64,000 bases of DNA. Origin: Pecten maximus (lineage: Eukaryota). The stretch covers positions 32,116,001 through 32,180,000 of the forward strand of contig NC_047027.1 in assembly GCF_902652985.1 (NCBI RefSeq), read 5' to 3'. The notes beneath the pieces were generated by a model. That model searched no databases. It was given only the letters and a program-made list of their open reading frames with translations, and was not told where the DNA came from. Shown here piece after piece: positions 13,650-43,799 of the stretch. Each line of letters opens with the position of its first letter. Within the stretch, counting starts at the first letter, position 1. The position numbers and the translations under genes are program-made.

Positions 13650-13782
13650 CATCACCAGCAGGAAGAGCTGGAGGTGACCGACACTGACAGTACGGTCAAG
13701 GTTTACAGTGAACGTCCACATCTGGTCAGTTTGGGCAGTGGTCGGCTGTCCACAGCTGTCACCATAGTACCACTACAGGAAG
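13650..13782 (+). CDS. PHLDB1: PHLDB1/LL5-like coding exon 2 (start of FHA-like domain)
   Basis: Acceptor attttccAG|CAT and donor GAAG|GTCAGT. Encodes ...KVYSERPHLVSLGSGRLSTAVTIVPLQEG, which I recognise as matching the PHLDB1 N-terminus (KVQTDKPHLVSLGSGRLSTAITLLPLEEG). Ends in phase 1. Confidence 0.92.
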
Positions 13783-13844: not shown

Positions 13845-14375
13845 ACTAGAGGTGAAGGTCACTATCACAGTCAGTACCAAAGGTCAAGGTCACTATCACT
13901 GTCAGTACCTAAAGTCACTATCACAGTCAGTACCAAAGGTCAAGTTCAGCATCACTTTCAGTACCAAAGGTCAAGGTCACTCTCCTGTCATTACCAAAGG
14001 TTAGCGTCACCATCACGGTCAGTACGAAAGGTCAAGGACACATCACTGTCAGTACCTATAAGGTCAAGGTCACTTTATATCACCATTAATACCAAAGGTC
14101 AACTTCACCATCACAGTCATTACCTAAGATCAATGTCACTTTGTATCATAATCAGTATCAAGGTCAACTTCACCATCACTGTCAGTACCAAAGGTCAAGG
14201 TCACTTGATATCATATTCAATAACAAGGTCACTATCACTTTTAATCCCAAAGTTAGGTCACCATTACTGACAGTACCAAAGTTCAAGGTCACTCTATATT
14301 GCAATTAGTACCAAGGTCAAGGTCACTATCACCTATTGTCCCAAAGTCAGGGTACAAACAGCATCAGGTCACTCA
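13845..14375. repeat. Degenerate ~31-bp repeat (cagtaccaaaggtcaaggtcactatcactgt)
   Basis: Directly visible downstream of the exon 2 donor. Confidence 0.85.
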
Positions 14376-14529
14376 CCTTAAGTATCCAAAATCTTAATAT
14401 CAGTTCATAGTAACAACTATTTTACTCTTTTGCACAAATATTTCCAAACGAACCTGTACACTTTCAATGCTGTAAATATTTACATTATAATCCATATCTA
14501 CAATCATGTTATGGATTTATGTGATGTAG

Positions 14530-14712
14530 GTCGCACAGATATCGGGACGGCAAACTGTGCCGTGATGCCGGATATAGTGATACAGGGTACAGGCATTGAG
14601 GATGAGCACTGCTATATCGACAACATCTACGGAACGATCACGCTGCACCCTATAGCCAGGATGTGTTCTATAGATGGAAAGATCATCACAGAGCCTACCA
14701 AACTGTCACAAG
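14530..14712 (+). CDS. PHLDB1: PHLDB1/LL5-like coding exon 3 (FHA-like core)
   Basis: Acceptor gatgtAG|GT and donor CAAG|GTCAGT; 183 nt, phase 1-1. Encodes GRTDIGTANCAVMPDIVIQGTGIEDEHCYIDNIYGTITLHPIARMCSIDGKIITEPTKLSQG, carrying the kinesin-3/PHLDB-type FHA motifs (DI.IQG.GI..EHC.I, L.QG). Confidence 0.92.
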
Positions 14713-15178
14713 GTCAGTGTCTTTATGTCTCAACACAAGTAAATCTAGCCCCATTTGTTAACTGTTTGTAGATAAATTTTCCCATTAGAATTTTCTTTTC
14801 CCTTGGCCTTACAAATTCATCTAACAACTGGTAAAAATTCCTCAAATATTTTGCTTCATTTTCCCCATAAAAACAAAGTTTTCATTTTTTTCTTAATATT
14901 TTTCTATCAATTGTTATGCCAATATATCTAGACCTTACAATTTCATTTATATCTTTTTTTCAATCAGGTTAGATAAATACCAAATTATCAAATTGAACCA
15001 TTGTAATTTACATGCCTGAATCATGTATGCTAACAATTTTAAAACAATTAAAAGGGAAAACCTTAAAATCAGATTCTGTTTGGTGAGAGGTAGTCTTCCT
15101 GTCCCCTAGGATCCCTGGCCTTTTCCTCTAGATATGAAAAAAGGTATACACTCTTAACCCTACCTTAATCCCGGGTCT

Positions 15179-16250
15179 AGGTCAGTGTGTGTACCTCATG
15201 GTTAGTGTGTGTACTTCAAGGTCAGTGTCTATATCTAAAGGCCAGTGTCTATATCTGAAGGTCAGTGTGTGTACCTCAAGGTCAGTGTCTATATCTGAAG
15301 GTCAGTGTGTGTACCTCACGGTCAGTGTGTGTACCTCAAGGTCAGTGTGAGTACCTCAAGGTCAGTGTCTGTACCTCAAGGTCAGTGTCTATATCTAAAG
15401 GTCAGTGTCTGCATTTGAAGGTCAGTGTCTGTACCTAAAGGTCAGTGTCTATATCTAAAGGTCAGTGTCTGCATTTCAAGGTCAGTGTCTGTACCTCAAG
15501 GTCAGTGTCTATATCTAAAGGTCAGTGTCTGCATTTGAAGGTCAGTGTCTGTACCTAAAGGTCAGTGTCTATATCTAAAGGTCAGTGTCGGCATTTCAAG
15601 GTCAGTGTCTGTACCTCAAGGTCAGTGTCTATATCTAAAGGTCAGTGTCTGCATTTCAAGGTCAGTGTCTGTACCTCAAGGTCAGTGTCTGTACCTCAAG
15701 TTCAGTGTCTATATCTAAAGGTCAGTGTCTGCATTTCAAGGTCAGTGTCTGTACCTCAAGGTCAGTGTATGTACCTTAAGGTCAGTGTCTGCCTCAAGGT
15801 CAGTGTCTATATCTAAATGTCAGTTCCTGTACCTCAAGGTCAGTGTCTGTACCTCAAGGTCAGTGTCTGTACCTCAAGGTCAGTGTCTGTACCTCAAGGT
15901 CAGTGTCTGTACCTCAAGGTCAGTGTCTGTACCTCAAGGTCAGTGTCTGTACTTCAAGTTCAGTGTCTGTACCTCAAGGTCGTTGTCTGTACCTCAAGGT
16001 CGGTGTCTGTACTTCAAGGTCAGTGTCTGTATCTCAAGGTCAGTGTCTACTTCAAGGTTAGTGTCTACCTCAAGGTCAGTGTCTGTACCTCAAGGTCAGT
16101 GTTTGTATCTGATAGCCAGTGTCTGTGACTGAAGGTCGATGTGTTTATCTGAAGGTCAATGCCTACTTCTCAATGTCAATATTTATATATCAATGTAAGG
16201 ATTTAAATCTCAAGGTCAGTGTCTCTATCTCAAGGTCAGTGTCTTTATCT
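15179..16250. repeat. 20-bp minisatellite (caaggtcagtgtctgtacct), ~50 copies
   Basis: Directly visible; unit matches the exon 3 donor junction. Confidence 0.95.
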
Positions 16251-29748: not shown

Positions 29749-30409
29749 TGTATAGGCAGGGGGGGGGGGGGGGGAGTCACATCAAATCACTTATCTGATA
29801 CAACATAGTATTAATAAAAAAATATGTTGAATAATTTATGGTAATTTTGTTTTTTGGAAGGGAGTGTCATTTTATTATGAGGTGGTGGTGGGGGGTGGGG
29901 GGGGGGGTGGGGGGGGGGTGTCATTTCACTATAATGCTATTTTGACCCCGGGGTCATTTCACCATGCTTCAAAATGCCATGCTGCAATGTGTGTATGTGA
30001 GATACAGGTGTATTGGGCCTTTTGCTTTTTTACACCTCCTGTTTGGTTATGCTGTCTGACTGATCCAATCAAACTTTGCCGTAGTGATCTGCCACATTCC
30101 TTCATAACAGTAGATATTTTAGAATTCTGACAGACAGAATAAAAACATGGTACTAAATCCTGCCAAAAAAACCTACACAAGTCCAGAATGTTTCTCCGTC
30201 ATCTCGCATCTAATTACTGGGGTATCGTTACACAGCACACAGTCAATTACTTTAGCATTTCTGTCCTCCTTCTCACTGCCAAGTTATCTCCCCTTTATGA
30301 TCCTGTAATTGGAACCTGTTTCCTTGATGAGCAAACAGTCACGTTTTTCAACATCTCTTGTGATTTATATAGATACAATTTACACAAACCATGAATCATT
30401 ACCGCTGAT

Positions 30410-40944: not shown

Positions 40945-43512
40945 ATACTGCAATAGAGCTGTGTGTTACCCTCCCCCACCCCCAGCCCTACCTACTACTG
41001 TAATAGAGGTGTGTGTTACCCTCCCCCACCCCCAGTCCTACCTACCTACTACTGTAATAGAGGTGTGTGTTACCCTCCCCCACCCCCAGTCCTACCTACC
41101 TACTACTGTAATAGAGGTGTGTGTTACCCTCCCCCACCCCCAGTCCTACCTACCTACTACTGTAATAGAGGTGTGTGTTACTCTCCCCCACCCCCAGTCC
41201 TACCTACTACTGTAATAGAGGTGTGTGTTACCCTCCCCCACCCCCAGTCCTATCTACTACTGTAATAGAGGTGTGTGTTTCCCTCCCCCACCCCCAGTCC
41301 TACATACCTACTACTGTAATAGAGCTGTGTGTAACCCTCCCCCACCCCCAGTCCTATCTACTACTGTAATATAGCTGTGTGTTACCCTCCCCACCCCAGT
41401 CCTATCTACTACTGTAATAGAGGTGTGTGTTTCCCTCCCCCACCCCCAGTCCTACATACCTACTACTGTAATAGAGGTGTGTGTTACCCTCCCCCACCCC
41501 CAGTCCTACCTACCTGCTACTGTAATAGAGGTGTGTGTTACCCTCCCCCACCCCCAGTCCTACATACCTACTACTGTAATAGAGGTGTGTGTTACCCTCC
41601 CCCACCCCCAGTCCTACCTACTACTGTAATAGAGGTGTGTGTTACCCTCCCCCACCCCCAGTCCTACATACCTACTACTGTAATAGAGGTGTGTGTTACC
41701 CTCCCCCACCCCCAGTCCTACCTACCTACTACTGTAATAGAGGTGTGTGTTACCCTCCCCCACCCCCAGCCCTACCTACTACTGTAATAGAGGTGTGTGT
41801 TACACTCCCTCACCCCCAGTCCTACCTACTACTGTAATAGTGGTGTGTGTTACCCTCCCCACCCCCAGTCCTACCTACCTACTACTGTAATAGAGGTGTG
41901 TGTTACCCTCCCCCACCCCCAGTCCTACCTACCTACTACTGTAATAGAGGTGTGTGTTACCCTCCCCCTCCCCCACCCCCAGTCCTACCTACTACTGTAA
42001 TAGAGGTGTGTGTTACCCTCCCCCACCCCCAGTCCTACCTATCTACTACTGTAATAGAGGTGTGTGTTACCCTCCCCCACCCCCAGTCCTACCTACCTAC
42101 TACTGTAATAGAGCTGTGTGTTACCCTCCCCACCCCCAGTCCTACCTACTACTGTAATAGAGGTGTGTGTTACCCTCCCCCACCCCCAGTCCTACCTACT
42201 ACTGTAATAGTGGTGTGTGTTACCCTCCCCCACCCCAGTCCTACCTACCTACTACTGTAATAGAGCTGTGTGTTACCCTCCCCCACCCCCAGTCCTACCT
42301 ACTACTGTAATAGAGGTGTGTGTTACCCTCCCCCACCCCCAGTCCTACCTACCTACTACTGTAATAGAGGTGTGTGTTACCCTCCCCCACCCCCAGTCCT
42401 ACCTACTACTGTAATAGAGGTGTGTGTTACACTCCCCCACCCCCAGTCCTACCTACCTACTACTGTAATAGAGGTGTGTGTTACCCTCCCCCACCCCCAG
42501 TCCTACCTACTACTGTAATAGAGGTGTGTGTTACCCTCCCCCACCCCCAGTCCTACCTACCTACTACTGTAATAGAGGTGTGTGTTACCCTCCCCCACCC
42601 CCAGTCCTACCTACTACTGTAATAGAGGTGTGTGTTACCCTCCCCCACCCCCAGTCCTACCTACCTACTACTGTAATAGAGCTGTGTGTTACCCTCCCCC
42701 ACCCCCAGTCCTACCTACCTACTACTGTAATAGAGGTGTGTGTTACCCTCCCCCACCCCCAGTCCTACCTACTACTGTAATAGAGGTGTGTGTTACCTTC
42801 CCCCACCCCCAGTCCTACCTACTACTGTAATAGAGGTGTGTGTTACCCTCCCCCACCCCCAGTCCTACCTACTACTGTAATAGAGGTGTGTGTTACCCTC
42901 CCCCACCCCCAGTCCTACCTACCTACTACTGTAATAGAGGTGTGTGTTACCCTCCCCCACCCCCAGTCCTACCTACCTACTACTGTAATAGAGGTGTGTG
43001 TTACCCTCCCCCACCCCCAGTCCTACCTACCTACTACTGTAATAGAGCTGTGTGTTACCCTCCCCCACCCCCAGTCCTACCTACCTACTGTAATAGAGGT
43101 GTGTGTTACCCTCCCCCACCCCCAGTCCTACATACCTACTACTGTAATAGAGCTGTGTGTTACCCTCCCCCCACCCCCAGTCCTACCTACCTACTGAAAT
43201 AGAGGTGTGTGTTACCCTCCCCCACCCCCAGTCCTACATACCTACTACTGTAATAGAGGTGTGTGTTACCCTCCCCCACCCCCAGTCCTACCTACTACTG
43301 TAATAGAGGCTGTGTGTTACCCTCCCCCCCCCCCAGTCCTACCTACTACTGTAATAGAGGTATGTGTTACCCTCCCCCCCCCCCAGTCTACCTACCTACT
43401 ACTGTAATAGAGGTGTATGTTACCCTCCCCCACCCCCAGTCCTACCTACCTACTACTGTAATATAGGTGTATGTTACCCTCCCCCACCCCCCAGTCCTAC
43501 CTACCTACTACA
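40945..43512. repeat. 50/54-bp C-rich minisatellite (tgtaatagaggtgtgtgttaccctcccccacccccagtcctac(ctac)ctactac)
   Basis: Directly visible; unit lengths shift frame, producing fragmented repeat ORFs. Confidence 0.97.
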
Positions 43513-43799
43513 GTAAAAGACAGGGGTATAAGATATATTTACCATGTGTCGTTTCCTAATCTCTCTCTGTTGGAGAAAGTGCTGTAGTATTTAAGTGTTG
43601 GCAACATTTCTAAAGATTTATTTTCTCAGACTTCAAGAAGCTTTTTCTAATGTTACATATATCAGACAGTAGCATTAGTATTGTAGCTGTATTTTTGTGA
43701 CAAACATCTGATGAATAAACAAACAATAAATAGATAAAGATGTGGTAAACAAAACAACGGAATTAAAGAAGATCAAGTAACAAAACAGTTTGCTAAAGA

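Follow-up and report, generated by a model that had tools for sequence, protein, structure and literature searches.

Human F7 intron 7 carries a 37-bp VNTR of 5–9 contiguous units, the first of which contains four exon bases and the splice donor, and its pseudo-sites are described as functional yet silent, without competing, since the site furthest upstream prevails (PMC1557585). The same study names CBS IVS13, 6-16, LMNB2 and PDGF as similar arrays, with silent pseudo-sites in F7, LMNB2 and PDGF and additional use of the two nearest copies in CBS and 6-16 (PMC1557585). In amphioxus, minisatellites called 'mirages' are described in the globin genes BflGb6 and BflGb9 and, as cited in the same study, in Adh3; these arrays appear by RT-PCR not to disturb splicing, their end units escape homogenisation, and the mechanism of their origin is called unclear (PMC3087553). 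A further source is a catalogue of human splicing-associated repeats that has no direct bearing here (PMC10078293). Our literature search, with most subscription journals outside its range, returned no paper describing minisatellites of this kind in bivalves or counting them across a genome, and the titles and opening lines of abstracts contained nothing to show that decoy donors in tandem can serve as a U1 shield.

We analyzed a related array in the scallop Pecten maximus, within a 64,000-nucleotide stretch of contig NC_047027.1 (hereafter the window, whose forward-strand positions are used throughout). By homology mapping, a PHLDB/LL5-like gene on the plus strand begins in the window and continues downstream on the same contig, with scallop proteins as the best homologues (93–98% over exon 2). 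Sequence reading and by-eye comparison with the N-termini of proteins P0001–P0003 place a putative coding exon 1 at 8496..8546 (MMDFYN...), and exon 2 (13650..13782), assigned by homology and junction placement, ends at a donor that likewise reads AAG/GTCAGT (slash at the exon–intron boundary). Exon 3, an FHA-like region at 14530..14712, is supported by 92% identity to P0001, spliced alignment and an RNA contig over 14562–14714, and exon 4 (62333..62455) was defined by spliced alignment. Homology joins the end of exon 3 at 14712 to the acceptor side at 62333, and this joint is present in the relatives' proteins; spliced alignment thus gives an intron of 47,620 nt, in agreement with the 47.6 kb estimated in a sequence-only reading of this DNA.

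Near the head of this intron lies a 20-bp minisatellite on the sense strand (15179..16250), for which repeat detection over 15179–16244 gives a period of 20, 53.6 copies and 83% matches. Exact AAGGTCAGT occurs in the array 39 times in sense and 0 times in antisense, bearing out the description of a sense-strand array of about 50 decoys. The decoy GT dinucleotides run from 15181 to 16235 and the real donor GT lies at 14713, a present distance of 468 nt from donor to first decoy. With a donor matrix that was itself trained on the scallop genome, 46 array GT sites reach at least 5.5 bits, and the 39 exact copies have the same score as the real donor, 10.0 bits. Positions 14709–14726 and 16231–16248 are identical over exactly 18 nt, as the sequence-only reading had reported, and the identity extends no further; among 52 units compared with the donor 18-mer, one matches at 18/18, 47 at 14–17 positions and 4 at 12–13, and the best match is the last array unit. 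Alignment to this terminal unit shows that the first 21 nt of the intron equal one whole array unit plus 2 nt, with similarity running to +21, through CTCAA, after a 2-nt gap. The segment 14709..14733, comprising the real donor and the first 21 intron bases, is likely a stranded first array unit on the strength of the 18-nt identity and the terminal-unit alignment.

The interval between donor and array (14727–15178) had been taken for unique sequence and instead holds an old, dispersed, non-coding repeat of about 436 bp (14737..15172, plus strand; profile match 14738–15171). This element is 67–77% identical to other genomic loci, aligns with 11 other copies (12 in all) whose ends are common to most, and has a short inversion at its termini of the form GGGTCAA...TTGACCC; dispersed copies with terminal inverted repeats make it MITE-like, and no target-site duplication is readable by eye in the diverged copies. 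The start of the element lies about 24 nt past the donor GT, and some 8 nt separate its end from the first decoy GT; without it, the donor–decoy spacing would shrink from 468 nt to 27–32 nt, the lower figure applying to ends placed 2–3 nt further out. Because its removal brings the donor to about 30 nt from the first decoy, the present arrangement of the sequence suggests that the array was likely a junction-spanning minisatellite, once contiguous with the exon and later split from it by this old insertion.

Comparison with the described systems reveals shared architecture and several differences. Like the amphioxus mirages, which copy the donor or acceptor side, the scallop array is a tandem series of exon–intron boundary copies with splice signals in its units, and its 20-bp unit is within the 10–72 bp range given for amphioxus Adh3 (PMC3087553). 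Unlike the mirages, it is detached by the ~436-bp insertion, has only 4 exon bases per unit and resides in a mollusc; end units escape homogenisation in amphioxus, whereas the last scallop unit is the one that matches the donor best, and normal splicing in amphioxus is backed by RT-PCR, whereas the silence of the scallop decoys is a prediction. As in F7, the scallop unit combines the last 4 exon bases with the intron start, and pseudo-donors of equal sequence follow the real donor, but F7 has 5–9 contiguous units and the scallop gene has about 54, starting 468 nt away. Pseudo-site silence is likewise demonstrated for F7, LMNB2 and PDGF and predicted for scallop. The repeat unit contains the gene's own exon–intron boundary, as shown by at least 14/18 matches in 48 of 52 units and by a locus-specific 14-mer (below), and copies retain intact splice signals (39 exact AAG/GTCAGT, 46 of at least 5.5 bits); the array and the real boundary are at present 468 nt apart, of which ~436 are dispersed element. 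Lacking present-day contiguity with the exon, the scallop array is best regarded as a variant of the mirage/F7 type.

We searched the 918-Mb genome for the 14-mer CAAGGTCAGTGTCT and found 40 occurrences, 24 of them at this locus (1 donor and 23 units) and 16 as scattered singles, compared with 10 for the control. No second array of this 14-mer is present in the genome, and the distribution of one unit over many unlinked loci that marks a dispersed satellite is absent. Because the 14-mer is largely confined to this locus, the array is not a dispersed satellite, which the sequence-only reading had listed among the findings that would refute its interpretation. A whole-array genome search, in which the best candidates were scored, returned look-alikes that are 65–78% identical and built of different units. 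Of the 11 best matches from this search, four (L002, L008, L009 and L011) begin, as judged by eye, at an apparent exon ending in AG/GTCAGT, and these exons read by eye as ArfGAP-like, BEACH-like, unnamed and Ig-like, respectively; another, L010, is antisense inside an ABC-transporter-like gene. The look-alikes appear to have arisen independently, each from a donor of this common type. The sequence AAG/GTCAGT is found at 11 of 681 surveyed donors, and AAGGTCA is frequent on both strands of the window.

To place the locus in context, we annotated scallop introns ourselves by spliced alignment to homologues, in a first set of 521 introns from 15 dynein heavy-chain regions and a full set of 681 introns from 18 dynein regions, 10 myosin regions and the PHLDB-like gene, with contig C29 excluded from counts. 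The survey is a sample and not the genome, because only GT-AG junctions between conserved exons were retained. Among the 681 introns, 26 have donor-spanning arrays (~4%) and 13 have acceptor-spanning arrays (difference p = 0.053), with 24 and 12, respectively, in 607 dynein introns and 2 and 1 in the 14 introns of the PHLDB-like gene; the 60 myosin introns from 10 regions have 0, a result that counts against our best explanation. When donors were swapped between genes, an array match arose in 0.00% of trials. The junction–array association that had been predicted from this locus is real in the sampled introns. A donor's own −4..+10 14-mer recurred in the exon-3 array for 1 of 680 other donors, and for 3 of 680 at a looser threshold. 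In the first set, tandem repeats account for 31% of the intronic sequence. Introns with donor arrays have a shorter non-repeat backbone (median 199 vs 380 nt, p = 2e-5; dynein regions L060–L247). Birth of the array from the junction, as originally proposed, is supported by the dispersed spacer, the unit at the intron start and the recurrence of junction-spanning arrays.

Several further arrays came to light in the course of this survey. The PHLDB-like gene has more boundary-linked arrays at L024:860-1150, L021:793-1181, L017:1692-1749, L025:857-1531 and L026:868-1185; two of them span donors (units of 37 and 21 bp), one is a short copy of a donor (22 bp), one spans an acceptor (72 bp) and one resembles an exon end. 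On another contig, an FHA-like exon has its donor spanned by a 22-bp array of 8.3 copies (L028:1648-1829). Within the window, degenerate repeats of ~100–190 bp at 62400–63070 copy the end of exon 4 and its donor, with exon-4-end copies at 62657, 62799 and 62990 that match at 32–34 of 50 bases. A degenerate 31-bp array at 13850–14332 begins 70 nt past the exon-2 donor, contains words from the exon-2 end and is possibly an older junction array, and a 12-bp array at 8575–9224, 28 nt past the exon-1 donor, has no evident donor match. Dynein exons at G000:C29:13544-17514 and C13:6825370-6834083, on a small and a chromosome-scale contig, give identical scores, which suggests a retained haplotype duplicate.

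We examined whether the junction is a preferred birthplace of arrays, giving most weight to a metagene because it is matched per intron. The rate of first copies in this analysis was 29/412 (7.0%) at donors vs 99/1368 (7.2%) at comparison positions pooled from +60, +100, +160 and +200 (p = 1.0), and 20/413 at acceptors (p = 0.54). A further run of the metagene agreed with this outcome. Along the profile, the rate was 0.5% within the exon, 40 nt from the junction, 7–11% at +20 to +80 and 5–7% at +100 to +200, and a slight excess across the introns' first 80 nt may remain. An unmatched random-position control gave first copies at 5–11% of donors vs 3–4% of random intron positions (about two-fold), and was ranked below the metagene because it overweights long introns and counts positions within arrays; a seed-density test gave 23 donor-spanning arrays vs 7–9 expected (2.6–3.2-fold, p about 5e-5 or less). 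That donor arrays are as frequent as seeding just inside the intron points to ordinary minisatellite birth, with selection on the exon as the filter, and not to a junction-targeting mechanism.

RNA evidence was drawn from 7 of 23 listed runs, compared with 14340–15170 and exon 4. Against 14340–15170, contigs of 4 runs gave 1 over exon 3 (run X1), 1 that matched the spacer repeat and 2 with none, and exon 4 was uncovered by the RNA contigs of 4 runs. The X1 contig spans 14562–14714 and stops at 14714 without a loose end; it has a T>C difference at 14675, likely an allele. An in-frame stop lies 19 codons past the real donor (14769..14771), and because it follows that donor, splicing from any decoy would produce a 651–1705-nt exon with a premature stop. 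In the same intron, a 54-bp array at 40946–43520 carries a sense donor-like GAG/GTGTGT, its 5-kb bin has 37 strong sense sites, and no obvious exon upstream of it was seen by eye.

These data are best read as the record of a neutral by-product. The array is real, and we consider it quite likely that it is junction-derived, probably split by insertion and probably neutral. The exon-3 donor would have been duplicated in tandem to give the 20-bp minisatellite, and the ~436-bp dispersed element would later have inserted and cut the array off from the exon. Scallop introns appear to keep producing minisatellites from any duplicated local sequence, of which the donor would be one such seed, and a duplication across it would be tolerated because the upstream copy leaves the exon end intact. 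As in human F7, the spliceosome is expected to take the first donor, leaving the decoys predicted silent, and rare decoy use would bring the stop at 14769 into the transcript, exposing it to probable removal by NMD. In a different history, a copy of the donor would have reached the far side of the element during or after its insertion, for example through a target-site-type duplication or a long initial one, and expansion would have been confined to that copy; the array would be equally junction-derived and neutral, with array and exon never contiguous. The weakly similar flanks gtctcaa at 14727 and gtctag at 15175 fit such a copy, but no target-site duplication is readable by eye in other copies of the element and later splitting is the simpler course because contiguous junction arrays are common; we consider this history quite unlikely. 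Coincidence, with an independent AGGTCA-rich minisatellite behind a common donor type, could draw on the frequency of AAG/GTCAGT among donors and of AAGGTCA in the window, on the 3/680 other donors that match the array loosely and on the similar antisense array L010. However, 16 stray 14-mers per 918 Mb imply a probability of roughly 1e-5 for a same-strand match within 1.6 kb, the similarity continues to +21 and the element occupies nearly the whole gap, and coincidence is highly improbable and already largely refuted.

The junction-derived decoys may instead be under selection to load U1 snRNP where the 47.6-kb intron begins, in support of elongation, protection from premature cleavage or NMD tuning. 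Of the 20 possible 9-mers in this array's unit, the one that forms the donor core (−3..+6) is conserved best (mismatch 4.6% vs 17.6% in the rest), the sole result favoring the functional side of the sequence-only reading, and 39 copies match the real donor's score. Weak leanings on the sense strand and the donor excess in the cruder tests point the same way: conservation leans to the core in 13 of the 21 donor arrays (p 0.06–0.09) and in other sense arrays (p 0.03–0.06; antisense p 0.5–0.85), and a strong donor motif occurs in sense in 14 internal arrays vs 3 in antisense, with about 4 of the 14 junction-derived by eye and one double-counted. Against selection, the matched metagene has no donor excess, the conservation rank of donor-like 9-mers within units is flat (0.47 sense, n = 69; 0.48 antisense, n = 52; p = 0.79), and donor arrays reside in short-backbone introns. 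The first sense AATAAA lies at 29813, 13.5 kb beyond the array (ATTAAA at 15047 and 22559), and this distance together with the short backbones argues against a shield for long introns. An abundant snRNP is not expected to be titrated by about 40 sites on two alleles. The F7 pseudo-sites do not compete with the real donor (PMC1557585). We consider selected decoys unlikely, and of the earlier interpretation the junction origin stands while the proposed roles as U1 sink or recruiter, NMD switch and polyadenylation shield find no support in the matched tests, the flat core ranks, the short introns or the distant AATAAA.

That the array, once detached, was kept as a U1 loading platform of about 40 tandem sites heading the 47.6-kb intron is a distinctly doubtful proposition. 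If it were true, junction-born minisatellites in scallop would repeatedly give rise to new elements for splicing or anti-termination, and decoys that loaded U1 would mark a new path from junk repeat to regulatory element. The intron count is a more useful result than the locus, itself a variant of a known oddity. Scallop genes offer many natural tests of the F7 first-donor rule, to which this locus adds decoys 0.5–1.5 kb away.
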